From contig JAUCBJ010006673.1 in assembly GCA_032718475.1 (NCBI GenBank), positions 1 through 55,807 of the forward strand: 55,807 bases of DNA. Direction: 5' to 3'. Positions 3,371-52,629 of this stretch are shown piece after piece. The stretch is from Nemertoderma westbladi. Its lineage: Eukaryota > Animalia > Xenacoelomorpha. Position 1 is the first letter of the stretch. Each line of letters begins with the position of its first letter. The notes beneath the pieces were generated by a model. The model saw nothing but the letters and a program-made list of their open reading frames with translations. It was not told the DNA's origin and ran no database searches. The position numbers and the translations under genes were made by a program.

Positions 3371-3870
3371 GACCCCTGGGATATAAAGAAAGACCCTTGG
3401 GATATACTGATATACCCCTGGGATATAAAGAAAGACCCTTGGGATATACTGATATACCCCTGGGATATAAAGAAAGACCCTTGGGATATACTGATATACC
3501 CCTGGGATATAAAGAAAGACCCTTGGGATATACTGATATACCCCTGGGATATAAAGAAAGACCCCTGGGATATAAAGAAAGACCCTTGGGATATACTGAT
3601 ATACCCCTGGGATATAAAGAAAGACCCTTGGGATATACTGATATACCCCTGGGATATAAAGAAAGACCCTTGGGATATACTGATATACCCCTGGGATATA
3701 AAGAAAGACCCTTGGGATATACTGATATACCCCTGGGATATAAAGAAAGACCCTTGGGATATACTGATATACCCCTGGGATATAAAGAAAGAACCTTGGG
3801 ATATACTGATATACCCCTGGGTTATAAAGAAAGAACCTTGGGATATACTGATATACCCCTGGGTTATAAA
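3371..3870. repeat. 42-bp minisatellite (dimer of two 21-bp subunits), ~12 copies
   Basis: Alternating cccctgggatataaagaaaga / cccttgggatatactgatata units, with one doubled subunit near 3562. Confidence 0.95.
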
Positions 3871-6190: not shown

Positions 6191-6343
6191 ATGACTTCCT
6201 GCAATCGCTTCCTTAAATTTTTTCGCACAGGAGATTATGACTCAGCATTACGACTGGTAGCCAATCGGAGTTGCTCAATAGATGAACGAAGTGAGAATAA
6301 CACAACGCCGTTGATGGTGGCTTGTTGGCTTGGACAACTGAAG
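6191..6343 (+). CDS. KIDINS220: KIDINS220/ARMS orthologue, first coding exon (start of ankyrin repeats)
   Basis: MTSCNRFLKFFRTGDYDSALRLVANRSCSIDERSENNTTPLMVACWLGQLK resembles the Kidins220 N-terminus (VDERNECGQTPLMIAAEQGNLEIV). Phase-0 donor AAG|gtcagc at 6344. An acceptor-like tttttcgcacag ending at 6230 means an upstream exon cannot be excluded. Confidence 0.8.
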
Positions 6344-8232: not shown

Positions 8233-8383
8233 ATTGTAAACGCTTTGTTGCTAAGAAACGCTTCGGTAAATTCCCAAGACAACGATGGTTGGACTCCTTT
8301 ACACTTCGCTGCCAAGGCAGGTCATCGTGATATTGTCGATGTTTTAGTGAACGAGGGAGCTGATATAGACCGTAAAGATATAG
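8233..8383 (+). CDS. KIDINS220: KIDINS220 exon 2 (ankyrin repeat)
   Basis: Acceptor ctttag|ATT. Translates IVNALLLRNASVNSQDNDGWTPLHFAAKAGHRDIVDVLVNEGADIDRKDI-G. Phase-1 donor ATAG|gttagt at 8384, compatible with exon 3. Not in the ORF track. Confidence 0.9.
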
Positions 8384-11300
8384 GTTAGTGAACAAGGGAG
8401 CTGATATAGACAGTAAAGATATAGGTAAGTGAACGAGGGAGCGGATACAGACCGTAAAGATATAGGTAAGTGAACGAGGGAGCGGATACAGACCGTAAAG
8501 ATATAGGTAAGTGAACGAGGGAGCGGATATAGACCGTAAAGATATTGGTAAGTGAACGAGGGAGCGGATACAGACCGTAAAGATATAGGTAAGTGAACGA
8601 GGGAGCGGATATAGACCGTAAAGATATTGGTAAGTGAACGAGGGAGCGGATATAGACCGTAAAGATATTGGTAAGTGAACGAGGGAGCTGATATAGACAG
8701 TAAAGATATAGGTAAGTGAACGAGGGAGCGGATACAGACCGTAAAGATATAGGTAAGTGAACGAGGGAGCTGATATAGACAGTAAAGATATAGGTAAGTG
8801 AACGAGGGAGCTGATATAGACAGTAAAGATATAGGTAAGTGAACGAGGGAGCGGATACAGACCGTAAAGATATAGGTAAGTGAACGAGGGAGCGGATACA
8901 GACCGTAAAGATATAGGTTAGTGAACAAGGGAGCTGATATAGACAGTAAAGATATAGGTAAGTGAACGAGGGAGCGGATATAGACCGTAAAGATATTGGT
9001 AAGTGAACGAGGGAGCTGATATAGACAGTAAAGATATAGGTAAGTGAACGAGGGAGCGGATACAGACCGTAAAGATATAGGTAAGTGAACGAGGGAGCGG
9101 ATACAGACTGTAAAGATATAGGTAAGTGAACGAGGGAGCTGATATAGACAGTAAAGATATAGGTAAGTGAACGAGGGAGCGGATACAGACCGTAAAGATA
9201 TAGGTAAGTGAACGAGGGAGCGGATACAGACTGTAAAGATATAGGTAAGTGAACGAGGGAGCTGATATAGACCGTAAAGATATAGGTAAGTGAACGAGGG
9301 AGCTGATATAGACAGTAAAGATATAGGTAAGTGAACGAGGGAGCGGATACAGACCGTAAAGATATAGGTAAGTGAACGAGGGAGCGGATACAGACTGTAA
9401 AGATATAGGTAAGTGAACGAGGGAGCTGATATAGACCGTAAAGATATAGGTAAGTGAACGAGGGAGCTGATATAGACCGTAAAGATATAGGTAAGTGAAC
9501 GAGGGAGCGGATATAGACCGTAAAGATATAGGTAAGTGAACGAGGGAGCTGATATAGACAGTAAAGATATAGGTAAGTGAACGAGGGAGCGGATACAGAC
9601 CGTAAAGATATAGGTAAGTGAACGAGGGAGCGGATACAGACTGTAAAGATATAGGTAAGTGAACGAGGGAGCTGATATAGACCGTAAAGATATAGGTAAG
9701 TGAACGAGGGAGCTGATATAGACCGTAAAGATATAGGTAAGTGAACGAGGGAGCGGATATAGACCGTAAAGATATAGGTAAGTGAACGAGGGAGCTGATA
9801 TAGACCGTAAAGATATAGGTAAGTGAACGAGGGAGCGGATATAGACCGTAAAGATATAGGTAAGTGAACGAGGGAGCTGATATAGACAGTAAAGATATAG
9901 GTAAGTGAACGAGGGAGCGGATACAGACTGTAAAGATATAGGTAAGTGAACGAGGGAGCGGATATAGACCGTAAAGATATAGGTAAGTGAACGAGGGAGC
10001 GGATACAGACCGTAAAGATATAGGTAAGTGAACGAGGGAGCGGATACAGACTGTAAAGATATAGGTAAGTGAACGAGGGAGCTGATATAGACCGTAAAGA
10101 TATAGGTAAGTGAACGAGGGAGCGGATATAGACCGTAAAGATATAGGTAAGTGAACGAGGGAGCTGATATAGACCGTAAAGATATAGGTAAGTGAACGAG
10201 GGAGCTGATATAGACCGTAAAGATATAGGTAAGTGAACGAGGGAGCGGATATAGACCGTAAAGATATAGGTAAGTGAACGAGGGAGCTGATATAGACAGT
10301 AAAGATATAGGTAAGTGAACGAGGGAGCGGATATAGACAGTAAAGATATAGGTAAGTGAACGAGGGAGCGGATATAGACAGTAAAGATATAGGTAAGTGA
10401 ACGAGGGAGCGGATATAGACAGTAGAGATATAGGTAAGTGAACGAGGGAGCGGATATAGACAGTAAAGATATAGGTAAGTGAACGAGGGAGCGGATACAG
10501 ACTGTAAAGATATAGGTAAGTGAACGAGGGAGCGGATATAGACAGTAGAGATATAGGTAAGTGAACGAGGGAGCGGATATAGACAGTAGAGATATAGGTA
10601 AGTGAACGAGGGAGCGGATATAGACAGTAAAGATATAGGTAAGTGAACGAGGGAGCGGATATAGACAGTAGAGATATAGGTAAGTGAACGAGGGAGCGGA
10701 TATAGACAGTAAAGATATAGGTAAGTGAACGAGGGAGCGGATATAGACAGTAGAGATATAGGTAAGTGAACGAGGGAGCTGATATAGACCGTAAAGATAT
10801 AGGTAAGTGAACGAGGGAGCGGATATAGACAGTAGAGATATAGGTAAGTGAACGAGGGAGCGGATATAGACAGTAAAGATATAGGTAAGTGAACGAGGGA
10901 GCGGATACAGACCGTAAAGATATAGGTAAGTGAACGAGGGAGCGGATACAGACTGTAAAGATATAGGTAAGTGAACGAGGGAGCGGATATAGACTGTAAA
11001 GATATAGGTAAGTGAACGAGGGAGCGGATATAGACAGTAGAGATATAGGTAAGTGAACGAGGGAGCGGATATAGACAGTAAAGATATAGGTAAGTGAACG
11101 AGGGAGCGGATATAGACAGTAAAGATATAGGTAAGTGAACGAGGGAGCGGATACAGACCGTAAAGATATAGGTAAGTGAACGAGGGAGCGGATATAGACA
11201 GTAAAGATATAGGTAAGTGAACGAGGGAGCGGATATAGACAGTAAAGATATAGGTAAGTGAACGAGGGAGCGGATATAGACAGTAGATATATAGGTAAGT

Positions 11301-14300
11301 GAACGAGGGAGCGGATATAGACAGTAGAGATATAGGTAAGTGAACGAGGGAGCGGATATAGACAGTAAAGATATAGGTAAGTGAACGAGGGAGCGGATAT
11401 AGACAGTAGAGATATAGGTAAGTGAACGAGGGAGCGGATATAGACAGTAGAGATATAGGTAAGTGAACGAGGGAGCGGATATAGACAGTAAAGATATAGG
11501 TAAGTGAACGAGGGAGCGGATATAGACAGTAGAGATATAGGTAAGTGAACGAGGGAGCGGATATAGACAGTAGAGATATAGGTAAGTGAACGAGGGAGCG
11601 GATATAGACAGTAAAGATATAGGTAAGTGAACGAGGGAGCGGATATAGACAGTAAAGATATAGGTAAGTGAACGAGGGAGCGGATATAGACAGTAAAGAT
11701 ATAGGTAAGTGAACGAGGGAGCGGATATAGACAGTAGAGATATAGGTAAGTGAACGAGGGAGCGGATATAGACAGTAAAGATATAGGTAAGTGAACGAGG
11801 GAGCGGATATAGACAGTAGAGATATAGGTAAGTGAACGAGGGAGCGGATATAGACAGTAGAGATATAGGTAAGTGAACGAGGGAGCGGATATAGACAGTA
11901 AATATATAGGTAAGTGAACGAGGGAGCGGATATAGACAGTAGAGATATAGGTAAGTGAACGAGGGAGCGGATATAGACAGTAGAGATATAGGTAAGTGAA
12001 CGAGGGAGCGGATATAGACCGTAAAGATATTGGTAAGTGAACGATGGAGCTGATACAGACAGTAAAGTTATAGGTAAGTGAACGAGGGAGCGGATATAGA
12101 CAGTAAAGATATAGGTAAGTGAACGAGGGAGCGGATACAGACAGTAAAGATATAGGTAAGTGAACGAGGGAGCGGATATAGACAGTAGAGATATAGGTAA
12201 GTGAACGAGGGAGCGGATATAGACCGTAAAGATATAGGTAAGTGAACGAGGGAGCGGATATAGACAGTAGAGATATAGGTAAGTGAACGAGGGAGCTGAT
12301 ACAGACAGTAAAGATATAGGTAAGTGAACGATGGAGCTGATACAGACAGTAAAGATATAGGTAAGTGAACGAGGGAGCTGATACAGACCGTAAAGATATA
12401 GGTAAGTGAACGAGGGAGCGGATATAGACAGTAAAGATATAGGTAAGTGAACGAGGGAGCGGATATAGACAGTAGAGATATAGGTAAGTGAACGAGGGAG
12501 CGGATATAGACCGTAAAGATATAGGTAAGTGAACGAGGGAGCGGATATAGACAGTAGAGATATAGGTAAGTGAACGAGGGAGCTGATACAGACAGTAAAG
12601 ATATAGGTAAGTGAACGAGGGAGCGGATATAGACAGTAGAGATATAGGTAAGTGAACGAGGGAGCGGATATAGACCGTAAAGATATAGGTAAGTGAACGA
12701 GGGAGCGGATATAGACAGTAGAGATATAGGTAAGTGAACGAGGGAGCTGATACAGACAGTAAAGATATAGGTAAGTGAACGATGGAGCTGATACAGACAG
12801 TAAAGATATAGGTAAGTGAACGAGGGAGCGGATACAGACCGTAAAGATATAGGTAAGTGAACGAGGGAGCGGATATAGACAGTAAAGATATAGGTAAGTG
12901 AACGAGGGAGCGGATATAGACAGTAGAGATATAGGTAAGTGAACGAGGGAGCGGATATAGACCGTAAAGATATAGGTAAGTGAACGAGGGAGCGGATATA
13001 GACAGTAGAGATATAGGTAAGTGAACGAGGGAGCGGATACAGACCGTAAAGATATAGGTAAGTGAACGAGGGAGCGGATATAGACAGTAGAGATATAGGT
13101 AAATGAACGAGGGAGCTGATACAGACAGTAAAGATATAGGTAAGTGAACGATGGAGCTGATACAGACAGTAAAGATATAGGTAAGTGAACGAGGGAGCGG
13201 ATACAGACCGTAAAGATATAGGTAAGTGAACGAGGGAGCGGATATAGACAGTAAAGATATAGGTAAGTGAACGAGGGAGCGGATATAGACAGTAGAGATA
13301 TAGGTAAGTGAACGAGGGAGCGGATATAGACCGTAAAGATATAGGTAAGTGAACGAGGGAGCGGATACAGACCGTAAAGATATAGGTAAGTGAACGAGGG
13401 AGCTGATACAGACAGTAAAGATATAGGTAAGTGAACGAGGGAGCGGATATAGACAGTAGAGATATAGGTAAGTGAACGAGGGAGCGGATATAGACCGTAA
13501 AGATATTGGTAAGTGAACGATGGAGCTGATACAGACAGTAAAGTTATAGGTAAGTGAACGAGGGAGCGGATATAGACAGTAAAGATATAGGTAAGTGAAC
13601 GAGGGAGCGGATACAGACAGTAAAGATATAGGTAAGTGAACGAGGGAGCGGATATAGACAGTAGAGATATAGGTAAGTGAACGAGGGAGCGGATATAGAC
13701 CGTAAAGATATAGGTAAGTGAACGAGGGAGCGGATATAGACAGTAGAGATATAGGTAAGTGAACGAGGGAGCTGATACAGACAGTAAAGATATAGGTAAG
13801 TGAACGATGGAGCTGATACAGACAGTAAAGATATAGGTAAGTGAACGAGGGAGCGGATACAGACCGTAAAGATATAGGTAAGTGAACGAGGGAGCGGATA
13901 TAGACAGTAAAGATATAGGTAAGTGAACGAGGGAGCGGATATAGACAGTAGAGATATAGGTAAGTGAACGAGGGAGCGGATATAGACCGTAAAGATATAG
14001 GTAAGTGAACGAGGGAGCGGATATAGACAGTAGAGATATAGGTAAGTGAACGAGGGAGCGGATACAGACCGTAAAGATATAGGTAAGTGAACGAGGGAGC
14101 GGATACAGACAGTAAAGTTATAGGTAAGTGAACGAGGGAGCTGATACAGACAGTAAAGATATAGGTAAGTGAACGAGGGAGCGGATATAGACCGTAAAGA
14201 TATAGGTAAGTGAACGAGGGAGCGGATATAGACAGTAAAGATATAGGTAAGTGAACGAGGGAGCGGATATAGACAGTAGATATATAGGTAAGTGAACGAG

Positions 14301-17300
14301 GGAGCGGATACAGACCGTAAAGATATAGGTAAGTGAACGAGGGAGCGGATACAGACAGTAAAGTTATAGGTAAGTGAACGAGGGAGCTGATACAGACAGT
14401 AAAGATATAGGTAAGTGAACGAGGGAGCGGATATAGACAGTAAAGATGTAGGTAAGTGAACGAGGGAGCGGATATAGACCGTAAAGATATAGGTAAGTGA
14501 ACGAGGGAGCGGATATAGACAGAGTAAAGATATAGAGGTAAGTGAACGAGGGAGCGGATATAGACAGTAAAGATATAGGTAAGTGAACGAGGGAGCGGAT
14601 ATAGACAGTAAAGATATAGGTAAGTGAACGAGGGAGCGGATATAGACAGTAAAGATATAGGTAAGTGAACGAGGGAGCGGATATAGACAGTAGATATATA
14701 GGTAAGTGAACGAGGGAGCGGATACAGACCGTAAAGATATAGGTAAGTGAACGAGGGAGCGGATACAGACAGTAAAGATATAGGTAAGTGAACGAGGGAG
14801 CGGATATAGACAGTAAAGATGTAGGTAAGTGAACGAGGGAGCGGATATAGACCGTAAAGATATAGGTAAGTGAACGAGGGAGCGGATATAGACAGTAAAG
14901 ATATAGGTAAGTGAACGAGGGAGCGGATATAGACAGTAGATATATAGGTAAGTGAACGAGGGAGCGGATACAGACCGTAAAGATATAGGTAAGTGAACGA
15001 GGGAGCGGATACAGACAGTAAAGTTATAGGTAAGTGAACGAGGGAGCTGATACAGACAGTAAAGATATAGGTAAGTGAACGAGGGAGCGGATATAGACAG
15101 TAAAGATGTAGGTAAGTGAACGAGGGAGCGGATATAGACCGTAAAGATATAGGTAAGTGAACGAGGGAGCGGATATAGACCGTAAAGATATAGGTAAGTG
15201 AACGAGGGAGCGGATATAGACTGTAAAGATATAGGTAAGTGAACGAGGGAGCGGATATAGACCGTAAAGATATAGGTAAGTGAACGAGGGAGCGGATATA
15301 GACTGTAAAGATATAGGTAAGTGAACGAGGGAGCGGATATAGACCGTAAAGATATAGGTAAGTGAACGAGGGAGCGGATACAGACAGTAAAGTTATAGGT
15401 AAGTGAACGAGGGAGCTGATACAGACAGTAAAGTTATAGGTAAGTGAACGAGGGAGCTGATACAGACCGTAAAGATATAGGTAAGTGAACGAGGGAGCGG
15501 ATATAGACCATAAAGATATAGGTAAGTGAACGAGGGAGCGGATATAGACCGTAAAGATATAGGTAAGTGAACGAGGGAGCGGATACAGACCGTAAAGATA
15601 TAGGTAAGTGAACGAGGGAGCGGATACAGACCGTAAAGATATAGGTAAGTGAACGAGGGAGCTGATATAGACCGTAAAGATATAGGTAAGTGAACGAGGG
15701 AGCGGATATAGACCGTAAAGATATAGGTAAGTGAACGAGGGAGCGGATACAGACCGTAAAGATATAGGTAAGTGAACGAGGGAGCTGATATAGACCGTAA
15801 AGATATAGGTAAGTGAACGAGGGAGCGGATATAGACCGTAAAGATATAGGTAAGTGAACGAGGGAGCGGATACAGACCGTAAAGATATAGGTAAGTGAAC
15901 GAGGGAGCGGATATAGACCGTAAAGATATAGGTAAGTGAACGAGGGAGCGGATATAGACCGTAAAGATATAGGTAAGTGAACGAGGGAGCGGATACAGAC
16001 CGTAAAGATATAGGTAAGTGAACGAGGGAGCTGATACAGACAGTAAAGATATAGGTAAGTGAACGAGGGAGCGGATATAGACCGTAAAGATATAGGTAAG
16101 TGAACGAGGGAGCGGATATAGACCGTAAAGATATAGGTAAGTGAACGAGGGAGCGGATACAGACCGTAAAGATATAGGTAAGTGAACGAGGGAGCTGATA
16201 CAGACCGTAAAGATATAGGTAAGTGAACGAGGGAGCTGATACAGACAGTAAAGATATAGGTAAGTGAACGAGGGAGCGGATATAGACCGTAAAGATATAG
16301 GTAAGTGAACGAGGGAAGCGATATAGACCGTAAAGATATAGGTAAGTGAACGAGGGAGCGGATATAGACCGTAAAGATATAGGTAAGTGAACGAGGGAGC
16401 TGATATAGACAGTAAATATATATAGGTAAGTGAACGAGGGAGCGGATATAGACCGTAAAGATATAGGTAAGTGAACGAGGGAAGCGATATAGACCGTAAA
16501 GATATAGGTAAGTGAACGAGGGAGCGGATATAGACCGTAAAGATATAGGTAAGTGAACGAGGGAGCGGATACAGACCGTAAAGATATAGGTAAGTGAATG
16601 AGGGAGCGGATACAGACCGTAAAGATATAGGTAAGTGAACGAGGGAGCTGATACAGACCGTAAAGATATAGGTAAGTGATCGAGGGAGCTGATATAGACA
16701 GTAAATATATATAGGTAAGTGAACGAGGGAGCGGATATAGACCGTAAAGATATAGGTAAGTGAACGAGGGAAGCGATATAGACCGTAAAGATATAGGTAA
16801 GTGAACGAGGGAGCGGATATAGACCGTAAAGATATAGGTAAGTGAACGAGGGAGCTGATACAGACCGTAAAGATATAGGTAAGTGAACGAGGGAGCTGAT
16901 ATAGACAGTAAATATATATAGGTAAGTGAACGAGGGAGCGGATATAGACCGTAAAGATATAGGTAAGTGAACGAGGGAAGCGATATAGACAGTAAAGATA
17001 TAGGTAAGTGAACGAGGGAGCGGATATAGACAGTAAAGATATAGGTAAGTGAACGAGGGAGCGGATATAGACAGTAAAGATATAGGTAAGTGAACGAGGG
17101 AGCGGATATAGACAGTAAAGATATAGGTAAGTGAACGAGGGAGCGGATATAGACTGTAAAGATATAGGTAAGTGAACGAGGGAGCGGATATAGACCGTAA
17201 AGATATAGGTAAGTGAACGAGGGAGCGGATATAGACTGTAAAGATATAGGTAAGTGAACGAGGGAGCGGATATAGACCGTAAAGATATAGGTAAGTGAAC

Positions 17301-20300
17301 GAGGGAGCGGATACAGACAGTAAAGTTATAGGTAAGTGAACGAGGGAGCTGATACAGACAGTAAAGTTATAGGTAAGTGAACGAGGGAGCTGATACAGAC
17401 CGTAAAGATATAGTATAGGTAAGTGAACGAGGGAGCGGATATAGACCGTAAAGATATAGGTAAGTGAACGAGGGAGCGGATATAGACCGTAAAGATATAG
17501 GTAATTGAACGAGGGAGCGGATACAGACCGTAAAGATATAGGTAAGTGAACGAGGGAGCTGATATAGACCGTAAAGATATAGGTAAGTGAACGAGGGAGC
17601 GGATATAGACCGTAAAGATATAGGTAAGTGAACGAGGGAGCGGATACAGACCGTAAAGATATAGGTAAGTGAACGAGGGAGCGGATATAGACCGTAAAGA
17701 TATAGGTAAGTGAACGAGGGAGCGGATATAGACCGTAAAGATATAGGTAAGTGAACGAGGGAGCGGATACAGACCGTAAAGATATAGGTAAGTGAACGAG
17801 GGAGCTGATACAGACCGTAAAGATATAGGTAAGTGAACGAGGGAGCTGATATAGACAGTAAATATATATAGGTAAGTGAACGAGGGAGCGGATATAGACC
17901 GTAAAGATATAGGTAAGTGAACGAGGGAAGCGATATAGACCGTAAAGATATAGGTAAGTGAACGAGGGAAGCGATATAGACCGTAAAGATATAGGTAAGT
18001 GAACGAGGGAGCGGATATAGACCGTAAAGATATAGGTAAGTGAACGAGGGAGCTGATACAGACCGTAAAGATATAGGTAAGTGAACGAGGGAGCTGATAT
18101 AGACAGTAAATATATATAGGTAAGTGAACGAGGGAGCGGATATAGACCGTAAAGATATAGGTAAGTGAACGAGGGAAGCGATATAGACCGTAAAGATATA
18201 GGTAAGTGAACGAGGGAGCGGATATAGACAGTAAATATATATAGGTAAGTGAACGAGGGAGCGGATATAGACCGTAAAATATAGGTAAGTGAACAAGGGA
18301 GCGGATATAGACAGTAAAGATATAGGTAAGTGAACGAGGGAGCTGATACAGACCGTAAAGATATAGGTAAGTGAACAAGGGAGCTGATACAGACCGTAAA
18401 GATATAGGTAAGTGAACGAGGGAGCGGATATAGACAGTAAATATATAGGTAAGTGAACGAGGGAGCGGATATAGACAGTAAATATATATAGGTAAGTGAA
18501 CGAGGGAGCGGATATAGACAGTAAATATATAGGTAAGTGAACGAGGGAGCTGATACAGACAGTAAAGATATAGGTAAGTGAACGAGGGAGCTGATACAGA
18601 CCGTAAAGATATAGGTAAGTGAACAAGGGAGCTGATACAGATCGTAAAGATATAGGTAAGTGAACAAGGGAGCTGATACAGACCGTAAAGATATAGGTAA
18701 GTGAACGAGGGAGCGGATATAGACACAGACAGTAAATATATAGGTAAGTGAACGAGGGAGCGGATATAGACAGTAGAGATATAGGTAAGTGAACGAGGGA
18801 GCTGATATAGACCGTAAAGATATAGGTAAGTGAACAAGGGAGCTGATACAGACCGTAAAGATATAGGTAAGTGAACGAGGGAGCGGATATAGACAGTAAA
18901 TATATATAGGTAAGTGAACGAGGGAGCGGATATAGACCGTAAAGATATAGGTAAGTGAACGAGGGAGCTGATACAGACCGTAAAGATATAGGTAAGTGAA
19001 CAAGGGAGCTGATACAGACCGTAAAGATATAGGTAAGTGAACGAGGGAGCGGATATAGACAGTAAATATATAGGTAAGTGAACGAGGGAGCGGATATAGA
19101 CAGTAGAGATATAGGTAAGTGAACGAGGGAGCGGATATAGACAGTAAATATATAGGTAAGTGAACGAGGGAGCTGATATAGACAGTAAATATATATAGGT
19201 AAGTGAACGAGGGAGCGGATATAGACAGTAAATATATATAGGTAAGTGAACGAGGGAGCGGATATAGACTGTAAAGATATAGGTAAGTGAACGAGGGAGC
19301 TGATATAGACAGTAAATATATATAGGTAAGTGAACGAGGGAGCGGATATAGACCGTAAAGATATAGGTAAGTGAACGAGGGAGCTGATACAGACCGTAAA
19401 GATATAGGTAAGTGAACGAGGGAGCTGATATAGACAGTAAATATATATAGGTAAGTGAACGAGGGAGCGGATATAGACCGTAAAGATATAGGTAAGTGAA
19501 CGAGGGAAGCGATATAGACCGTAAAGATATAGGTAAGTGAACGAGGGAGCGGATATAGACAGTAAATATATATAGGTAAGTGAACGAGGGAGCGGATATA
19601 GACCGTAAAGATATAGGTAAGTGAACGAGGGAGCGGATATAGACAGTAAATATATATAGGTAAGTGAACGAGGGAGCTGATATAGACCGTAAAGATATAG
19701 GTAAGTGAACGAGGGAGCTTATATAGACAGTAAAGATATAGGTAAGTGAACGAGGGAGCGGATATAGACAGTAGAGATATAGGTAAGTGAACGAGGGAGC
19801 GGATATAGACAGTAGAGATATAGGTAAGTGAACGAGGGAGCGGATACAGACAGTAAAGTTATAGGTAAGTGAACGAGGGAGCTTATATAGACAGTAAAGA
19901 TATAGGTAAGTGAACGAGGGAGCGGATATAGACAGTAGAGATATAGGTAAGTGAACGAGGGAGCGGATATAGACAGTAGAGATATAGGTAAGTGAACGAG
20001 GGAGCGGATACAGACAGTAAAGTTATAGGTAAGTGAACGAGGGAGCTGATATAGACAGTAAATATATATAGGTAAGTGAACGAGGGAGCGGATACAGACC
20101 GTAAAGATATAGGTAAGTGAACGAGGGAGCGGATATAGACTGTAAAGATATAGGTAAGTGAACGAGGGAGCGGATATAGACAGTAAATATATATAGGTAA
20201 GTGAACGAGGGAGCGGATATAGACCGTAAAGATATAGGTAAGTGAACGAGGGAGCTGATACAGACCGTAAAGATATAGGTAAGTGAACGAGGGAGCTGAT

Positions 20301-26300: not shown

Positions 26301-29300
26301 GGGAGCGGATACAGACCGTAAAGTTATAGGTAAGTGAACGAGGGAGCTAATATAGACAGTAAAGATATAGGTAAGTGAACGAGGGAGCTGATACAGACCG
26401 TAAAGTTATAGGTAAGTGAACGAGGGAGCTAATATAGACAGTAAAGATATAGGTAAGTGAACGAGGGAGCTGATACAGACCGTAAAGATATAGGTAAGTG
26501 AACGAGGGAGCTGATATAGACCGTAAAGATATAGGTAAGTGAACGAGGGAGCGGATATAGACAGTAAATATATATAGGTAAGTGAACGAGGGAGCAGATA
26601 TAGACCGTAAAATATAGGTAAGTGAACGAGGGAGCGGATATAGACCGTAAAGATATAGGTAAGTGAACGAGGGAGCGGATACAGACCGTAAAGTTATAGG
26701 TAAGTGAACGAGGGAGCGGATATAGACAGTAAAGATATAGGTAAGTGAACGAGGGAGCGGATATAGACAGTAGATATATAGGTAAGTGAACGAGGGAGCT
26801 GATATAGACCGGAAAGATATAGGTAAGTGAACGAGGGAGCGGATATAGACAGTAAATATATAGGTAAGTGAACGAGGGAGCTGATATAGACAGTAAATAT
26901 ATATAGGTAAGTGAACGAGGGAGCGGATATAGACCGTAAAGATATAGGTAAGTGAACGAGGGAGCTGATATAGACCGTAAAGATATAGGTAAGTGAACGA
27001 GGGAGCGGATACAGACCGTAAAGTTATAGGTAAGTGAACGAGGGAGCTAATATAGACAGTAAAGATATAGGTAAGTGAACGAGGGAGCTGATACAGACCG
27101 TAAAGTTATAGGTAAGTGAACGAGGGAGCTAATATAGACAGTAAAGATATAGGTAAGTGAACGAGGGAGCTGATACAGACCGTAAAGATATAGGTAAGTG
27201 AACGAGGGAGCTGATATAGACAGTAAATATATATAGGTAAGTGAACGAGGGAGCGGATATAGACAGTAAATATATATAGGTAAGTGAACGAGGGAGCGGA
27301 TATAGACAGTAAATATATATAGGTAAGTGAACGAGGGAGCGGATATAGACAGTAAAGATATAGGTAAGTGAACGAGGGAGCGGATATAGACAGTAAATAT
27401 ATATAGGTAAGTGAACGAGGGAGCGGATATAGACAGTAAAGATATAGGTAAGTGAACGAGGGAGCGGATATAGACAGTAAATACATAGGTAAGTGAACGA
27501 GGGAGCTGATATAGACAGTAAATATATATAGGTAAGTGAACGAGGGAGCGGATATAGACCGTAAAGATATAGGTAAGTGAACGAGGGAGCTGATATAGAC
27601 CGTAAAGATATAGGTAAGTGAACGAGGGAGCGGATACAGACCGTAAAGTTATAGGTAAGTGAACGAGGGAGCTAATATAGACAGTAAAGATATAGGTAAG
27701 TGAACGAGGGAGCTGATACAGACCGTAAAGTTATAGGTAAGTGAACGAGGGAGCTGATATAGACAGTAAAGATATAGGTAAGTGAACGAGGGAGCTGATA
27801 CAGACCGTAAAGATATAGGTAAGTGAACGAGGGAGCTGATATAGACAGTTAATATATATAGGTAAGTGAACGAGGGAGCGGATATAGACAGTAAATATAT
27901 ATAGGTAAGTGAACGAGGGAGCGGATATAGACAGTAAATATATATAGGTAAGTGAACGAGGGAGCGGATATAGACAGTAAAGATATAGGTAAGTGAACGA
28001 GGGAGCGGATATAGACAGTAAATATATATAGGTAAGTGAACGAGGGAGCGGATATAGACAGTAAAGATATAGGTAAGTGAACGAGGGAGCGGATATAGAC
28101 AGTAAATATATATAGGTAAGTGAACGAGGGAGCGGATATAGACAGTAAATATATATAGGTAAGTGAACGAGGGAGCGGATATAGACAGTAAAGATATAGG
28201 TAAGTGAACGAGGGAGCGGATATAGACAGTAAAGATATAGGTAAGTGAACGAGGGAGCGGATATAGACCGTAAAGATATAGGTAAGTGAACGAGGGAGCG
28301 GATATAGACCGTAAAGATATAGGTAAGTGAACGAGGGAGCGGATATAGACCGTAAAGATATAGGTAAGTGAACGAGGGAGCTGATATAGACCGTAAAGAT
28401 ATAGGTAAGTGAACGAGGGAGCGGATACAGACCGTAAAGTTATAGGTAAGTGAACGAGGGAGCTGATACAGACCGTAAAGATATAGGTAAGTGAACGAGG
28501 GAGCTGATACAGACCGTAAAGATATAGGTAAGTGAACGAGGGAGCTGATACAGACAGTAGAGATATAGGTAAGTGAACGAGGGAGCGGATATAGACCGTA
28601 AAGATATAGGTAAGTGAACGAGGGAGCGGATATAGACAGTAGAGATATAGGTAAGTGAATGAGGGAGCGGATATAGACCGTAAAGATATAGGTAAGTGAA
28701 CGAGGGAGCGGATATAGACAGTAGAGATATAGGTAAGTGAATGAGGGAGCGGATATAGACCGTAAAGATATAGGTAAGTGAACGAGGGAGCGGATACAGA
28801 CCGTAAAGTTATAGGTAAGTGAACGAGGGAGCTGATATAGACAGTAGAGATATAGGTAAGTGAATGAGGGAGCGGATATAGACAGTAGAGATATAGGTAA
28901 GTGAATGAGGGAGCGGATATAGACCGTAAAGATATAGGTAAGTGAACGAGGGAGCGGATATAGACCGTAAAGATATAGGTAAGTGAACGAGGGAGCGGAT
29001 ATAGACAGTAAATATATAGGCAAGTGAACGAGGGAGCTGATACAGACCGTAAAGATATAGGTAAGTGAACGAGGGAGCGGATATAGACAGTAAATATATA
29101 TAGGTAAGTGAACGAGGGAGCTGATATAGACCGTAAAGATATAGGTAAGTGAACGAGGGAGCGGATACAGACCGTAAAGATATAGGTAAGTGAACGAGGG
29201 AGCTGATACAGACCGTAAAGATATAGGTAAGTGAACGAGGGAGCTGATATAGACCGTAAAGATATAGGTAAGTGAACGAGGGAGCTGATATAGACCGTAA

Positions 29301-32300
29301 AGATATAGGTAAGTGAACGAGGGAGCGGATATAGACCGTAAAGATATAGGTAAGTGAACGAGGGAGCGGATATAGACAGTAGAGATATAGGTAAGTGAAT
29401 GAGGGAGCGGATATAGACCGTAAAGATATAGGTAAGTGAACGAGGGAGCGGATATAGACAGTAGAGATATAGGTAAGTGAATGAGGGAGCGGATATAGAC
29501 CGTAAAGATATAGGTAAGTGAACGAGGGAGCGGATACAGACCGTAAAGTTATAGGTAAGTGAACGAGGGAGCTGATATAGACCGTAAAGATATAGGTAAG
29601 TGAACGAGGGAGCTGATATAGACCGTAAAGATATAGGTAAGTGAACGAGGGAGCTGATATAGACCGTAAAGATATAGGTAAGTGAACGAGGGAGCGGATA
29701 CAGACCGTAAAGTTATAGGTAAGTGAACGAGGGAGCGGATACAGACCGTAAAGTTATAGGTAAGTGAACGAGGGAGCTGATACAGACCGTAAAGATATAG
29801 GTAAGTGAACGAGGGAGCGGATATAGACAGTAAATATATATAGGTAAGTGAACGAGGGAGCGGATACAGACCGTAAAGTTATAGGTAAGTGAACGAGGGA
29901 GCTGATATAGACCGTAAAGATATAGGTAAGTGAACGAGGGAGCTGATATAGACCGTAAAGATATAGGTAAGTGAACGAGGGAGCGGATATAGACAGTAGA
30001 GATATAGGTAAGTGAATGAGGGAGCGGATATAGACCGTAAAGATATAGGTAAGTGAACGAGGGAGCGGATACAGACCGTAAAGTTATAGGTAAGTGAACG
30101 AGGGAGCTGATATAGACCGTAAAGATATAGGTAAGTGAACGAGGGAGCTGATATAGACCGTAAAGATATAGGTAAGTGAACGAGGGAGCTGATATAGACC
30201 GTAAAGATATAGGTAAGTGAACGAGGGAGCGGATACAGACCGTAAAGTTATAGGTAAGTGAACGAGGGAGCTGATACAGACCGTAAAGATATAGGTAAGT
30301 GAACGAGGGAGCGGATATAGACAGTAAATATATATAGGTAAGTGAACGAGGGAGCGGATACAGACCGTAAAGTTATAGGTAAGTGAACGAGGGAGCTGAT
30401 ACAGACCGTAAAGATATAGGTAAGTGAACGAGGGAGCGGATATAGACTGTAAAGATATATGTAAGTGAACGAGTGAGCTGATACAGACCGTAAAGATATA
30501 GGTAAGTGAACGAGGGAGCTGATATAGACAGTAAATATATATAGGTAAGTGAACGAGGGAGCGGATACAGACCGTAAAGTTATAGGTAAGTGAACGAGGG
30601 AGCTGATACAGACCGTAAAGATATAGGTAAGTGAACGAGGGAGCGGATATAGACAGTAAATATATATAGGTAAGTGAACGAGGGAGCTGATATAGACCGT
30701 AAAGATATTGGTAAGTGAACGAGGGAGCTGATATAGACCGTAAAGATATAGGTAAGTGAACGAGGGAGCGGATATAGACAGTAAATATATAGGTAAGTGA
30801 ACGAGGGAGCGGATACAGACAGTAAAGATATAGGTAAGTGAACGAGGGAGCGGATATAGACTGTAAAGATATAGGTAAGTGAACGATGGAGCTGATACAG
30901 ACCGTAAAGATATAGGTAAGTGAACGAGGGAGCTGATATAGACCGTAAAGATATTGGTAAGTGAACGAGGGAGCTGATATAGACCGTAAAGATATAGGTA
31001 AGTGAACGAGGGAGCTGATATAGACCGTAAAGATATAGGTAAGTGAACGAGGGAGCGGATATAGACTGTAAAGATATATGTAAGTGAACGAGTGAGCTGA
31101 TACAGACCGTAAAGATATAGGTAAGTGAACGAGGGAGCTGATACAGACCGTAAAGATATAGGTAAGTGAACGAGGGAGCGGATATAGACTGTAAAGATAT
31201 ATGTAAGTGAACGAGTGAGCTGATACAGACCGTAAAGATATAGGTAAGTGAACGATGGAGCTGATACAGACCGTAAAGATATAGGTAAGTGAACGAGGGA
31301 GCTGATATAGACCGTAAAGATATTGGTAAGTGAACGAGGGAGCTGATATAGACCGTAAAGATATAGGTAAGTGAACGAGGGAGCTGATATAGACCGTAAA
31401 GATATAGGTAAGTGAACGAGGGAGCGGATACAGACCGTAAAGTTATAGGTAAGTGAACGAGGGAGCTGATACAGACCGTAAAGATATAGGTAAGTGAACG
31501 AGGGAGCTGATACAGACCATAAAGATATAGGTAAGTGAACGAGGGAGCGGATATAGACTGTAAAGATATATGTAAGTGAACGAGTGAGCTGATACAGACC
31601 GTAAAGATATAGGTAAGTGAACGAGGGAGCTGATATAGACAGTAAATATATATAGGTAAGTGAACGAGGGAGCGGATACAGACCGTAAAGTTATAGGTAA
31701 GTGAACGAGGGAGCTGATACAGACCGTAAAGATATAGGTAAGTGAACGAGGGAGCGGATATAGACAGTAAATATATATAGGTAAGTGAACGAGGGAGCTG
31801 ATATAGACCGTAAAGATATTGGTAAGTGAACGAGGGAGCTGATATAGACCGTAAAGATATAGGTAAGTGAACGAGGGAGCGGATACAGACCGTAAAGTTA
31901 TAGGTAAGTGAACGAGGGAGCGGATATAGACAGTAAATATATAGGTAAGTGAACGAGGGAGCGGATACAGACAGTAAAGATATAGGTAAGTGAACGAGGG
32001 AGCGGATATAGACTGTAAAGATATAGGTAAGTGAACGATGGAGCTGATACAGACCGTAAAGATATAGGTAAGTGAACGAGGGAGCTGATATAGACCGTAA
32101 AGATATTGGTAAGTGAACGAGGGAGCTGATATAGACCGTAAAGATATAGGTAAGTGAACGAGGGAGCTGATATAGACCGTAAAGATATAGGTAAGTGAAC
32201 GAGGGAGCGGATACAGACCGTAAAGTTATAGGTAAGTGAACGAGGGAGCTGATACAGACCGTAAAGATATAGGTAAGTGAACGAGGGAGCGGATATAGAC

Positions 32301-35300
32301 AGTAAATATATATAGGTAAGTGAACGAGGGAGCGGATATAGACAGTAAATATATATAGGTAAGTGAACGAGGGAGCGGATACAGACCGTAAAGTTATAGG
32401 TAAGTGAACGAGGGAGCTGATACAGACCGTAAAGATATAGGTAAGTGAACGAGGGAGCGGATATAGACAGTAAATATATATAGGTAAGTGAACGAGGGAG
32501 CGGATATAGACAGTAAATATATATAGGTAAGTGAACGAGGGAGCTGATATAGACCGTAAAGATATAGGTAAGTGAACGAGGGAGCGGATATAGACAGTAA
32601 ATATATATAGGTAAGTGAACGAGGGAGCGGATACAGACCGTAAAGTTATAGGTAAGTGAACGAGGGTGCTGATACAGACCGTAAAGATATAGGTAAGTGA
32701 ATGAGAGAGTGGATATAGACTGTAAAGATATAGGTAAGTGAACGAGGGTGCTGATACAGACCGTAAAGATATAGGTAAGTGAACGAGGGAGCTGATACAG
32801 ACCGTAAAGATATAGGTAAGTGAACGAGGGAGCGGATATAGACTGTAAAGTTATAGGTAAGTGAACGAGGGAGCTGATATAGACCGTAAAGATATAGGTA
32901 AGTGAACGAGGGAGCGGATACAGACCGTAATTGATATAGGTAAGTGAACGAGGGAGCTGATACAGACCGTAAAGATATAAAAAAGGTAAGTGAACGAGGG
33001 AGCGGATACAGACTGTAAAGATATAGGTAAGTGAACGAGGGAGCTGATACAGACCGTAAAGATATAGGTAAGTGAACGAGGGAGCGGATATAGACAGTAG
33101 AGATATAGGTAAGTGAACGAGGGAGCTGATACAGACCGTAAAGATATAGGTAAGTGAACGAGGGAGCGGATATAGACTGTAAAGATATAGGTAAGTGAAC
33201 GATGGAGCTGATACAGACCGTAAAGATATAGGTAAGTGAACGAGGGAGCTGATATAGACCGTAAAGATATTGGTAAGTGAACGAGGGAGCTGATATAGAC
33301 CGTAAAGATATAGGTAAGTGAACGAGGGAGCTGATATAGACCGTAAAGATATAGGTAAGTGAACGAGGGAGCGGATACAGACCGTAAAGTTATAGGTAAG
33401 TGAACGAGGGAGCTGATACAGACCGTAAAGATATAGGTAAGTGAACGAGGGAGCGGATATAGACAGTAAATATATATAGGTAAGTGAACGAGGGAGCGGA
33501 TATAGACAGTAAATATATATAGGTAAGTGAACGAGGGAGCGGATACAGACCGTAAAGTTATAGGTAAGTGAACGAGGGAGCTGATACAGACCGTAAAGAT
33601 ATAGGTAAGTGAACGAGGGAGCGGATATAGACAGTAAATATATATAGGTAAGTGAACGAGGGAGCGGATATAGACAGTAAATATATATAGGTAAGTGAAC
33701 GAGGGAGCTGATATAGACCGTAAAGATATAGGTAAGTGAACGAGGGAGCGGATATAGACAGTAAATATATATAGGTAAGTGAACGAGGGAGCGGATACAG
33801 ACCGTAAAGTTATAGGTAAGTGAACGAGGGTGCTGATACAGACCGTAAAGATATAGGTAAGTGAATGAGAGAGTGGATATAGACTGTAAAGATATAGGTA
33901 AGTGAACGAGGGTGCTGATACAGACCGTAAAGATATAGGTAAGTGAACGAGGGAGCTGATACAGACCGTAAAGATATAGGTAAGTGAACGAGGGAGCGGA
34001 TATAGACTGTAAAGTTATAGGTAAGTGAACGAGGGAGCTGATATAGACCGTAAAGATATAGGTAAGTGAACGAGGGAGCGGATACAGACCGTAATTGATA
34101 TAGGTAAGTGAACGAGGGAGCTGATACAGACCGTAAAGATATAAAAAAGGTAAGTGAACGAGGGAGCGGATACAGACTGTAAAGATATAGGTAAGTGAAC
34201 GAGGGAGCTGATACAGACCGTAAAGATATAGGTAAGTGAACGAGGGAGCGGATATAGACAGTAGAGATATAGGTAAGTGAACGAGGGAGCTGATACAGAC
34301 CGTAAAGATATAGGTAAGTGAACGAGGGAGCTGATATAGACCGTAAAGATATAGGTAAGTGAACGAGGGAGCTGATATAGACAGTAAAGATATAGGTAAG
34401 TGAACGAGGGAGCGGATATAGACTGTAAAGATATAGGTAAGTGAACGAGGGAGCTAATACAGACCATAAAGATATAGGTAAGTGAACGAGGGAGCGGATA
34501 CAGACCGTAAAGTTATAGGTAAGTGAACGAGGGAGCGGATATAGACAGTAGAGATATAGGTAAGTGAATGAGGGAGCTGATACAGACCGTAAAGATATAG
34601 GTAAGTGAACGAGGTAGCTGATACAGACCGTAAAGATATAGGTAAGTGAACGAGGGAGCTGATATAGACAGTAGAGATATAGGTAAGTGAATGAGGGAGC
34701 GGATATAGACCGTAAAGATATATAGGTAAGTGAACGAGGGAGCTGATACAGACCGTAAAGATATAGGTAAGTGAACGAGGGAGCTGATACAGACCGTAAA
34801 GATATAGGTAAGTGAACGAGGGAGCTGATACAGACCGTAAAGATATAGGTAAGTGAACGAGGGAGCTGATATAGACCGTAAAGATATATAGGTAAGTGAA
34901 CGAGGGAGCTGATACAGACCGTAGAGATATAGGTAAGTGAACGAGGGAGCGGATATAGACAGTAGAGATATAGGTAAGTGAACGAGGGAGCTGATACAGA
35001 CCGTAAAGATATAGGTAAGTGAACGAGGGAGCTGATATAGACCGTAAAGATATATAGGTAAGTGAACGAGGGAGCTGATACAGACCGTAAAGTTATAGGT
35101 AAGTGAACGAGGGAGCGGATACAGACCGTAAAGATATAGGTAAGTGAACGAGGGAGCTGATATAGACCGTAAAGATATATAGGTAAGTGAACGAGGGAGC
35201 TGATACAGACCGTAGAGATATAGGTAAGTGAACGAGGGAGCGGATATAGACAGTAGAGATATAGGTAAGTGAACGAGGGAGCGGATATAGACCGTAGAGA

Positions 35301-38300
35301 TATAGGTAAGTGAACGAGGGAGCGGATATAGACAGTAAATATATATAGGTAAGTGAATGAGGGAGCTGATACAGACCGTAAAGATATAGGTAAGTGAACG
35401 AGGGAGCTGATACAGACCGTAAAGATATAGGTAAGTGAACGAGGGAGCGGATATAGACAGTAAATATATAGGTAAGTGAACGAGGGAGCGGATACAGACA
35501 GTAAAGATATAGGTAAGTGAACGAGGGAGCGGATATAGACTGTAAAGATATAGGTAAGTGAACGATGGAGCTGATACAGACCGTAAAGATATAGGTAAGT
35601 GAACGAGGGAGCTGATATAGACCGTAAAGATATTGGTAAGTGAACGAGGGAGCTGATATAGACCGTAAAGATATAGGTAAGTGAACGAGGGAGCTGATTA
35701 GACCGTAAAGATATAGGTAAGTGAACGAGGGAGCGGATACAGACCGTAAAGTTATAGGTAAGTGAACGAGGGAGCTGATACAGACCGTAAAGATATAGGT
35801 AAGTGAACGAGGGAGCGGATATAGACAGTAAATATATATAGGTAAGTGAACGAGGGAGCGGATATAGACAGTAAATATATATAGGTAAGTGAACGAGGGA
35901 GCGGATACAGACCGTAAAGTTATAGGTAAGTGAACGAGGGAGCTGATACAGACCGTAAAGATATAGGTAAGTGAACGAGGGAGCGGATATAGACAGTAAA
36001 TATATATAGGTAAGTGAACGAGGGAGCGGATATAGACAGTAAATATATATAGGTAAGTGAACGAGGGAGCTGATATAGACCGTAAAGATATAGGTAAGTG
36101 AACGAGGGAGCGGATATAGACAGTAAATATATATAGGTAAGTGAACGAGGGAGCGGATACAGACCGTAAAGTTATAGGTAAGTGAACGAGGGAGCGGATA
36201 CAGACCGTAAAGTTATAGGTAAGTGAACGAGGGTGCTGATACAGACCGTAAAGATATAGGTAAGTGAACGAGGGAGCTGATACAGACCGTAAAGATATAG
36301 GTAAGTGAACGAGGGAGCGGATATAGACAGTAAAGATATAGGTAAGTGAACGAGGGAGCGGATATAGACTGTAAAGATATAGGTAAGTGAACGAGGGAGC
36401 TAATACAGACCATAAAGATATAGGTAAGTGAACGAGGGAGCGGATACAGACCGTAAAGTTATAGGTAAGTGAACGAGGGAGCTGATATAGACCGTAAAGA
36501 TATAGGTAAGTGAACGAGGGAGCGGATACAGACCGTAATTGATATAGGTAAGTGAACGAGGGAGCTGATACAGACCGTAAAGATATAAAAAAGGTAAGTG
36601 AACGAGGGAGCGGATACAGACTGTAAAGATATAGGTAAGTGAACGAGGGAGCGGATACAGACCGTAAAGATATAGGTAAGTGAACGAGGGAGCGGATACA
36701 GACCGTAATTGATATAGGTAAGTGAACGAGGGAGCTGATACAGACCGTAAAGATATAAAAAAGGTAAGTGAACGAGGGAGCGGATACAGACTGTAAAGAT
36801 ATAGGTAAGTGAACGAGGGAGCTGATACAGACCGTAAAGATATAGGTAAGTGAACGAGGGAGCGGATATAGACAGTAGAGATATAGGTAAGTGAACGAGG
36901 GAGCTGATACAGACCGTAATTGATATAGGTAAGTGAACGAGGGAGCTGATACAGACCGTAAAGATATAGGTAAGTGAACGAGGGAGCGGATACAGACCGT
37001 AATTGATATAGGTAAGTGAACGAGGGAGCTGATACAGACCGTAAAGATATAAAAAAGGTAAGTGAACGAGGGAGCGGATACAGACTGTAAAGATATAGGT
37101 AAGTGAACGAGGGAGCGGATACAGACCGTAAAGATATAGGTAAGTGAACGAGGGAGCGGATACAGACCGTAATTGATATAGGTAAGTGAACGAGGGAGCT
37201 GATACAGACCGTAAAGATATAAAAAAGGTAAGTGAACGAGGGAGCGGATACAGACTGTAAAGATATAGGTAAGTGAACGAGGGAGCTGATACAGACCGTA
37301 AAGATATAGGTAAGTGAACGAGGGAGCGGATATAGACAGTAGAGATATAGGTAAGTGAACGAGGGAGCTGATACAGACCGTAAAGATATAGGTAAGTGAA
37401 CGAGGGAGCTGATATAGACCGTAAAGATATAGGTAAGTGAACGAGGGAGCTGATATAGACAGTAAAGATATAGGTAAGTGAACGAGGGAGCGGATATAGA
37501 CTGTAAAGATATAGGTAAGTGAACGAGGGAGCTAATACAGACCATAAAGATATAGGTAAGTGAACGAGGGAGCGGATACAGACCGTAAAGTTATAGGTAA
37601 GTGAACGAGGGAGCGGATATAGACAGTAGAGATATAGGTAAGTGAATGAGGGAGCTGATACAGACCGTAAAGATATAGGTAAGTGAACGAGGGAGCTGAT
37701 ACAGACCGTAAAGATATAGGTAAGTGAACGAGGGAGCTGATATAGACAGTAGAGATATAGGTAAGTGAATGAGGGAGCGGATATAGACCGTAAAGATATA
37801 TAGGTAAGTGAACGAGGGAGCTGATACAGACCGTAAAGATATAGGTAAGTGAACGAGGGAGCTGATACAGACCGTAAAGATATAGGTAAGTGAACGAGGG
37901 AGCTGATACAGACCGTAAAGATATAGGTAAGTGAACGAGGGAGCTGATATAGACCGTAAAGATATATAGGTAAGTGAACGAGGGAGCTGATACAGACCGT
38001 AAAGATATAGGTAAGTGAACGAGGGAGCGGATATAGACAGTAGAGATATAGGTAAGTGAACGAGGGAGCGGATATAGACAGTAGAGATATAGGTAAGTGA
38101 ATGAGGGAGCTGATACAGACCGTAAAGATATAGGTAAGTGAACGAGGGAGCTGATACAGACCGTAAAGATATAGGTAAGTGAACGAGGGAGCGGATATAG
38201 ACAGTAAAGATATAGGTAAGTGAACGAGGGAGCTGATATAGACGGTAAAGATATAGGTAAGTGAACGAGGGAGCTGATTTAGACCGTAAAGATATAGGTA

Positions 38301-39686
38301 AGTGAACGAGGGAGCGGATATAGACAGTAGAGATATAGGTAAGTGAACGAGGGAGCTGATATAGACAGTAGAGATATAGGTAAGTGAACGAGGGAGCGGA
38401 TATAGACCGTAAAGATATAGGTAAGTGAACGAGGGAGCGGATATAGACAGTAGAGATATAGGTAAGTGAACGAGGGAGCTGATATAGACCGTAAAGATAT
38501 ATAGGTAAGTGAACGAGGGAGCTGATACAGACCGTAAAGATATAGGTAAGTGAACGAGGGAGCGGATATAGACAGTAGAGATATAGGTAAGTGAATGAGG
38601 GAGCGGATATAGACCGTAAAGATATAGGTAAGTGAACGAGGGAGCGGATATAGACAGTAGAGATATAGGTAAGTGAACGAGGGAGCTGATATAGACCGTA
38701 AAGATATATAGGTAAGTGAACGAGGGAGCTGATACAGACCGTAAAGATATAGGTAAGTGAACGAGGGAGCTGATACAGACCGTAAAGATATAGGTAAGTG
38801 AACGAGGGAGCGGATATAGACAGTAGAGATATAGGTAAGTGAACGAGGGAGCTGATATAGACAGTAGAGATATAGGTAAGTGAACGAGGGAGCGGATACA
38901 GATTGTAAAGATATAGGTAAGTGAACGAGGGAGCGGATACAGACCGTAAAGATATAGGTAAGTGAACGAGGGAGCGGATACAGACCGTAAAGTTATAGGT
39001 AAGTGAACGAGGGAGCTGATACCGTAAAGATATAGGTAAGTGAACGAGGGAGCTGATACAGACCGTAAATATATAGGTAAGTGAACGAGGGAGCTGATAC
39101 AGACCGTAAAGATATAGGTAAGTGAACGAGGGAGCTGATACAGACCGTAAAGATATAGGTAAGTGAACGAGGGAGCGGATACAGACCGTAAAGTTATAGG
39201 TAAGTGAACGAGGGAGCTGATACCGTAAAGATATAGGTAAGTGAACGAGGGAGCTGATACAGACCGTAAAGTTATAGGTAAGTGAACGAGGGAGCTGATA
39301 CAGACCGTAAAGATATAGGTAAGTGAACGAGGGAGCTGATACAGACCGTAAAGATATAGGTAAGTGAACGAGGGAGCTGATACAGACCGTAAAGATATAG
39401 GTAAGTGAACGAGGGAGCGGATACAGACCGTAAAGTTATAGGTAAGTGAACGAGGGAGCTGATACAGACCGTAAAGTTATAGGTAAGTGAACGAGGGAGC
39501 TGATACAGACCGTAAAGATATAGGTAAGTGAACGAGGGAGCTTATATAGACCGTAAAGATATAGGTAAGTGAACGAGGGAGCGGATATAGACCGTAAAGA
39601 TATAGGTAAGTGAACGAGGGAGCGGATACAGACCGTAAAGTTATAGGTAAGTGAACGAGGGAGCTTATATAGACCATAAAGATATA
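8344..39686 (+). repeat. ~31.3 kb tandem array of a 41-bp unit (~760 copies) derived from the KIDINS220 exon-2 end plus 5' splice site
   Basis: Consensus gtgaacgagggagc(g/t)gata(t/c)agac(c/a)gtaaagatatag|gtaa. The first unit overlaps coding sequence (V-N-E-G-A-D-I-D-R-K-D-I-G). The copy number is an estimate from length/41. Confidence 0.98.
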
Positions 39687-49000: not shown

Positions 49001-49027
49001 TGACATGGAAAGTTTCCATAGCAACCA

Positions 49028-52460: not shown

Positions 52461-52629
52461 GCGGGTGGACTGCTATTACTTGGGCTGCGTACAATGGTTA
52501 TCTTCCGATCGCAGAGACCCTTGCACGTGGCTGCGTTTCATTGGATCTGAGGGATGTTCACAACGTAACACCTTTAATATGGGCCGCCGGAAGGGGTCAT
52601 TTCGCTCTAGTTCGATTTTTACTTGCGAG
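52461..52629 (+). CDS. KIDINS220: KIDINS220 exon 3 (ankyrin repeats)
   Basis: Acceptor ttattacag|GC. Translates GWTAITWAAYNGYLPIAETLARG..VTPLIWAAGRGHFALVRFLLA, matching Kidins220 IIWAAGRGH. Phase-2 donor AG|gtaagt at 52630. Confidence 0.92.

Follow-up and report, generated by a model that had tools for sequence, protein, structure and literature searches.

Minisatellites that span a splice donor and reiterate it into the adjacent intron are a published class, known from human F7 and from the 'mirages' of amphioxus. An array of this class, with 760 units over 31.3 kb copying the end of a coding exon of KIDINS220 and its donor, is present in a stretch of 55,807 nucleotides from Nemertoderma westbladi (contig JAUCBJ010006673.1, forward strand), here called the window. 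Intron 7 of human F7 contains a 37-bp variable number tandem repeat (VNTR), and related human arrays are located in 6-16 (25 pseudo-sites), CBS intron 13 (15-20), LMNB2 (10-15) and PDGF (16-18) (PMC1557585). F7 minigenes with 1-12 repeats used the most upstream donor only, even in competition with later sites of consensus values up to 91 (PMC1557585). The VNTR in intron 18 of human ABCA7 has a 25-bp unit starting at the donor of exon 18, in 12 to ~427 copies and up to 10.7 kb; in that gene the donor of the second unit is used, and exon skipping rises with the length of the array (PMC5954066). The amphioxus mirages, in Adh3 and the globins BflGb6 and BflGb9, are characterized by 'concerted evolution with cluster boundaries excluded' (PMC3087553).

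The KIDINS220 array resembles that of F7 in the boundary-spanning first unit, the reiterated donor, the unit size and splicing from the most upstream donor. F7-type arrays, however, comprise 5-25 copies as compared to 760, the F7 unit is mostly intronic with 4 exonic nucleotides whereas the KIDINS220 unit is almost wholly exonic, and unlike in F7 the later donors match the consensus better than the real donor. Common to ABCA7 and KIDINS220 are an array beginning at the donor, hundreds of copies and a much lengthened intron. The ABCA7 unit begins at the GT and carries no coding sequence, in contrast to the exon end plus donor of KIDINS220, and effects on splicing and disease are shown for ABCA7, not for the KIDINS220 array. 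Compared with the largest ABCA7 allele, the KIDINS220 array has ~1.8 times the copies and three times the length, the ABCA7 figure counting units rather than donors. The mirages are likewise tandem duplications of a boundary in a non-vertebrate, with normal splicing kept and edge units outside concerted evolution; they differ in having 3-6 units in the globin example and in that either boundary can be copied. The satellite repeats that fill the giant introns of Drosophila Y fertility genes are not known to copy a splice junction of their host gene. These introns share with the present one a repeat-driven gigantism that burdens transcription and splicing, at lengths of hundreds of kb to Mb (PMC11207136). 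A literature search, mostly outside subscription journals, yielded no donor array above ~427 copies, and the available parts of PMC10078293, PMC4227790 and PMC13322065 contained no further donor-array case. The KIDINS220 array is remarkable for its size, not for its type, and is the largest of its kind found in the literature searched. Its value lies in being an extreme case. The published class (F7, CBS, 6-16, ABCA7, mirages) had gone unnamed in the initial annotation.

An array of exon end and donor in a KIDINS220 intron

The four KIDINS220 exons of the window (Table 1) form together a frame of 996 residues that is open to the window end. The encoded domains follow the order of KIDINS220, N-terminal ankyrin repeats (Pfam Ank) and then the KAP P-loop NTPase (PF07693); KIDINS220/ARMS proteins have in addition a C-terminal SAM region. 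Among the matches listed, the named ones with 99-100 % coverage were KIDINS220 or KAP-NTPase proteins with 33-36 % identity. Colinearity was examined exon by exon with tblastn for five of the 120 homologs listed (two fishes, one mollusc, two beetles). In all five homologs the best matches of the exons were in order and gapless, e.g. at residues 19-53, 50-103, 103-157 and 163-479, and the first coding exon region matched at the N-terminus. An ankyrin-like match above 22 bits between 39.7 and 52.4 kb was not obtained with these five homologs. Since the exons are colinear and gapless in the homologs, the array is placed inside an intron of 44,077 nt, of which it makes up 71 %. The name 'exon 2' for the exon upstream of the array was taken over from the initial annotation: homology establishes a coding exon, while its number is provisional, as exons of the 5' untranslated region may precede it. 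Its length of 151 nt means that skipping would shift the KIDINS220 frame.

The 3' end of exon 2 is the seed of the array. The seed-encoded ankyrin residues align with all five homologs, and because these residues are conserved, the array derived from the exon and not the reverse, in agreement with the origin proposed initially. An exonised satellite as origin was rejected on the same grounds.

Table 1. Features of the KIDINS220 locus in the window
Feature	Position	Strand	Remarks
KIDINS220 first coding exon seen	6191..6343	+	open frame; start ATG at 6191 uncertain; donor AAG/GTCAGC
KIDINS220 'exon 2'	8233..8383	+	151 nt; ankyrin repeat, Pfam Ank E=1.7e-14; colinear homology
Seed unit	8344..8390	+	exonic TTAGTG at 8344, again at 8385 (41 nt on)
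Minisatellite array	8345..39686	+	760 units, 37-47 nt, 41 modal; 759 donor positions
Authentic donor TAG/GTTAGT	8381..8389	+	7/9 consensus matches; sole donor yielding protein
Perfect tandem duplication	31988..34315	+	28 units, 2 x 1164 bp; longest exact repeat within array
Last unit	39649..39686	+	stops at exon-end sequence without donor; unique sequence follows
LINE-like reverse transcriptase remnant	40593..~42660-43085	+	split over three frames; RVT_1 E=0.0019, 4e-15, 3.2e-6; same intron
ASK/MAP3K15-like kinase open reading frame	43866..47771	+	intact, intronless, 1301 aa; nested on same strand in KIDINS220 intron
Second LINE-like reverse transcriptase fragment	49022..49960	+	RVT_1 E=3e-8; same intron
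KIDINS220 'exon 3'	52461..52629	+	169 nt; frame stays open; acceptor placed from homology
KIDINS220 large exon	53319..55807	+	ankyrin repeats, KAP NTPase; continues beyond window end
LINE, long interspersed nuclear element.

The initial description of a ~31-kb array of ~760 copies was confirmed. Tandem Repeats Finder reported a single array at 8346-39686 with a period of 41, 759.9 copies and 93 % matches; splitting the array gave 760 unit starts, with a spacing of 41 nt in 658 of 759 cases and all spacings between 37 and 47 nt. Spacings of 40 or 42 nt, i.e. single-base indels, were rare (10/759). Eighty-seven distinct unit types were present, 34 of them singletons, and the window is free of N. 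The GT was kept at 758 of the 759 donor positions. Their contexts were 720 times TAG/GTAAGT, 19 times TTG/GTAAGT, six times AAG/GTAAGT, four times TAT/GTAAGT, three times TAG/GTTAGT and once each GAG/GTAAGT and CAG/GTAAGT, with five others. The units had been said to reform AG/GTAAGT on the sense strand; this applies to 728 of the 758 downstream copies, while the authentic donor at 8384 reads GTTAGT. The sequence AGGTAAGT was counted 728 times on the plus strand of the array, never on its minus strand and twice in the other 24.5 kb. Neither AATAAA nor ATTAAA was present in the array (8345-39686), and an Rfam search of the window gave 0 matches. Stop-free frames on the minus strand of the array (8384-39686, up to 2980 codons) were not accepted as a gene, since 30 % of the units, once shuffled, likewise had no minus-strand stop.

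The seed corresponds to the last ~40 bases of exon 2 and agrees with the array consensus at all but 2 of 41 positions. Slippage via TTAGTG had been suggested as the start of the array. The exonic TTAGTG indeed recurs exactly 41 nt further on. With no donor at the end of the last unit, the intron start that preceded the array has disappeared, and the true length of the microhomology is unreadable. The units diverge from the consensus by 4.1 % on average, and adjacent units have 2.12 differences on average, compared with 2.52 between units more than 400 copies apart. This variation is ordinary local turnover. T at position +3 is confined to the donors at 8384, 8917 and 22833, with A in 756 of 759; together with the distance trend this presents, as in the mirages, concerted evolution with the edge unit excluded. 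The number of distinct variant alleles per site was 0.89 in the nine donor positions and 1.0 in the other 32, placing the donor window at rank 21 of 41. A stronger conservation of the donor positions is not evident (P about 0.2, from the copy counts given below).

Donor use in predictions and public sequencing runs

Donors were scored against the consensus as given in PMC1557585, which may not be that of the host species. On this scale 728 of the 758 downstream donors reach 8 or 9 of 9, versus 7 for the authentic donor. Read-through beyond the authentic donor meets a stop after one codon, so that protein cannot result from any of the later donors, in whichever frame. Folding of 8345-8590 was unexceptional (z = -1.61; 13 of 200 shuffles as good), and the predicted openness was 0.011 for the authentic donor versus 0.05-0.14 for later donors. 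As far as folding predictions go, RNA structure does not conceal the later donors. A splice from exon 2 to an acceptor-like site, noted by eye just upstream of the kinase reading frame, was dismissed: it would be out of frame, it starts with GT, and the X4 contig described below misfits it at its end.

Four public runs from three studies (X1-X4; X3 is from the same sample as X1) were compared with positions 5600-8470. The unique contigs of X1 and X2, runs from two DNA studies, stop at 8360 and 8375, at the start of the repeat. The depth over 8384-8470 was 9961 (X1) and 19736 (X2), versus ~20-28 in unique sequence; the ratios of unit depth to single-copy depth were ~410-500 (X1) and ~710-850 (X2), contig depth not being a copy number. 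The high-depth unit copies could sit elsewhere in the genome. One run could be the source of the assembly, although several sites distinguish each of the runs from the window.

Run X4 contributed a contig on donor use. This contig, record 31 of the run (226 letters at a depth of 8.8), is identical to the window over 8231-8384 and, by its bin depths, has 55.0 letters in exon 1, 56.9 and 96 around exon 2 and 1.0 beyond. The two extra letters on the left are the AG common to the end of exon 1 and the acceptor; the extra letter on the right is the G common to the intron and exon 3. With one exception, the later donors carry T at +2, whereas exon 3 starts with GC. A contig entering any unit would match the T at 8385; record 31 does not, which indicates an exit at the first donor. 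We read it as spliced RNA that would have used the first donor (8383/8384), with the acceptor inferred and not in the contig. The initially proposed junction 8383 to 52461 is thereby supported in two of its parts, the join by colinear homology and the exit at the first donor by this contig, while the acceptor was not seen. In this way the locus agrees with its class: the opening unit straddles an exon-intron junction of an intact gene, copies of the donor continue through the intron that follows, and one exon-only contig exits at the most upstream donor.

A probably tolerated minisatellite and its alternatives

The array is most probably a neutral minisatellite of exon end and donor, born by slippage, grown by unequal exchange and tolerated through the selection of the first donor. 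A runaway minisatellite tolerated by the gene was already among the initial proposals and is the best reading. Slippage at the exon-intron junction likely started the array, and unequal exchange likely enlarged it. In the manner of human F7, the exon's own acceptor would define the exon and fix the nearest donor while the RNA is leaving the polymerase. For want of a good acceptor upstream, the 758 later donors would be silent, or rarely used with the products removed by nonsense-mediated decay. The array would then be spliced out within the 44-kb intron at a cost of ~10-30 min of transcription; the polymerase elongates at 1-3 kb/min. As the likely reason for this tolerance, we propose that the spliceosome settles on the first donor past the exon. 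The intact frames of KIDINS220 and of the nested kinase support tolerance. The locus is of interest for splicing itself: a weak first donor (7/9) seems to beat 728 stronger ones (8 or 9 of 9) starting 41 nt behind, and every splicing error yields a null product. It thus suits a test of order-of-emergence versus site-strength models, on a scale well past the 12 repeats reached with F7 minigenes.

Several observations weigh against this reading. The RNA support for the first donor comes from a single contig (depth 8.8) of X4, a run that carries the label 'DNA?'; the joints and the final 17 letters of the contig are unread, contigs lose rare isoforms, and a retrocopy would resemble it and could predate the array. 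The depth ratios of X3 ranged from 18 to 977 under uneven coverage, depth not being a copy number. The prevailing TAG/GTAAGT is one base from the perfect consensus, and in F7 later sites of perfect consensus took 70-90 % of splicing (PMC1557585). Neutrality is not guaranteed, given that ABCA7 uses the donor of its second unit and that its exon skipping changes with array length. Counted by copies, no part of the unit varies less than the donor: the donor window ranks 5 of 41 nine-nt windows, the four windows ranked lower also overlap the donor, and the median of variant copies per site is 1 in the donor versus 5 elsewhere. We take this low variation as a hint, not a result, since the six sites of highest variability would all fall outside the donor with a probability of 0.20. 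The single near-fixed difference from the seed, A at +3, moves toward better U1 pairing. The contrast of T and A at +3 needs no selection and is explicable by either of two neutral histories: at the first site, the exon copy may have replaced a GTAAGT of the ancestor; alternatively, T may have changed to A early and been amplified, with the edge unit escaping homogenisation.

Among the alternatives, a length-dependent dosage dial as in ABCA7 appears improbable. Longer alleles would increase the use of downstream donors or the skipping of the exon, nonsense-mediated decay and the delay of transcription. Every alternative product is nonproductive here, by the immediate stop or the frame shift from skipping 151 nt; the depth ratios of X1 and X2 differ; and ABCA7 offers a precedent in its second-donor use and length-related exon skipping (PMC5954066). 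In F7, however, the repeat number (1-12) left the site choice unchanged (PMC1557585), and a measurable effect would not prove selection for the effect.

We give a low probability to a selected U1-loading zone or condensate seed, which would keep the RNA on chromatin or the polymerase processive through the LINE remnants and the nested kinase, without premature 3' cleavage. Such a zone would draw on 728 U1 sites close to the consensus, every one of them on the sense strand; this polarity follows from the origin of the array. Their predicted accessibility is 0.11-0.12, versus 0.09-0.12 for the rest of the RNA, and the donor window is the part least varied by copies. The other 12.8 kb of the intron hold 22 AATAAA and 15 ATTAAA, including the signal of the kinase, and single U1 motifs retained a reporter RNA on chromatin (bioRxiv 10.1101/310433). 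The array itself, however, has no poly(A) signal to protect, and the AATAAA of the kinase (47961) lies 8314 nt beyond the last array donor, outside the reported range of telescripting, the median of which is ~500 nt for fly and 1000 nt for mammals (PMC5499120). Telescripting has also been argued to be largely splicing-dependent (PMC13322065). The 759 sites on 1-20 nascent chains would occupy 0.08-1.5 % of one million U1, a mammalian figure (PMC10870369) that may be smaller in this animal. No array-bearing contig was found in X4 (depth 0.1), though a mature-RNA library would miss one. Genes nested in the same orientation are common in mammals, without such arrays (PMC11694760). A U1 sponge or condensate, considered in the initial annotation, is not supported, given the small ceiling of U1 occupancy, the missing X4 contig and the lack of clear selection on the donor positions. 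A local U1 focus is conceivable, as single U1 motifs can hold RNA on chromatin. The related proposal of the 760 donors as a selected U1 runway, which would let host and nested gene share a strand with the array length setting the balance, has an equally slight chance. Should the array prove to be under selection, or read-through of the nested kinase gene to depend on it, this would be a new use of U1 sites. The locus is in any case a natural one for asking if dense U1 sites nucleate a nuclear focus.

An inflated or misjoined assembly, in which the length of the array or its link to the right flank is wrong, is likewise unlikely. No read or contig in the runs examined spans the array or supports its right boundary, the donor expected in the last unit is missing, and one exact tandem duplication of 1164 bp is present. 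On the other side, N is absent from the array, its 87 unit types show local turnover, exact repeats do not exceed 1.2 kb and single-base indels are few. The unique contigs of X1 and X2 end at the array start, followed by the several-hundred-fold rise in depth, and the flanking exons are consecutive in the homologs, with the 39.7-52.4 kb segment free of ankyrin-like matches at the limit given above.

Stepwise removal of the 44-kb intron, with each unit as a recursive-splicing ratchet point (YAG directly before GT, TAG/GTAAGT in 720 units), is hardly credible: a ratchet point has a pyrimidine-rich acceptor directly before the donor, whereas the 18 nt upstream of the unit donors are 39 % pyrimidine versus 61-67 % at the three real acceptors of the gene, the AG is merely the last two bases of the exon, the spacing is 41 nt, and the other 12.8 kb of the intron have one donor-like site.

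Nested kinase and further features of the window

The intron had been described as host of the array, which it is; a kinase gene on the same strand and two LINE fragments in it had been overlooked. The nested kinase has the domains MAP3K_TRAF_bd, ASK_PH, Pkinase and HisK-N-like, and its best matches, from many animal phyla, have 42-55 % identity. The KIDINS220 exon of more than 2.4 kb and the intronless kinase suggest that intron loss or retroposition may be common in the lineage. An exact 19-nt match connects 4096-4114 and 43654-43672, upstream of KIDINS220 and of the kinase, with a third copy of 13 nt at 4241. Short palindromes, GTACCGGT and TAGGCCTA, are clustered near these matches and elsewhere. 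The shared 19 nt hint at a possible promoter motif, and thus at a promoter of its own for the kinase.

Similar stretches of 56-59 nt at 40618 and 43157 flank the first LINE remnant. Further along the same intron, long inverted arms of 21-bp subrepeats (50795-51819) resemble a foldback transposon or a miniature inverted-repeat transposable element. Most of the next intron is occupied by a 17-bp repeat (52755-53153, 23 copies at 97 %), by eye not derived from an exon boundary. Intron 1 contains dense high-copy dispersed repeats (6752-7999) with a summed depth up to 1e5. Upstream of KIDINS220, a 42-bp minisatellite of 12 copies (3370-3872) is open on the plus strand, in a 188-aa repeat reading frame at 3325-3891. 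Near the window start, a 54-nt inverted repeat (768-821 and 1285-1338, 96 %) encloses ~460 nt and is probably a non-autonomous DNA transposon.

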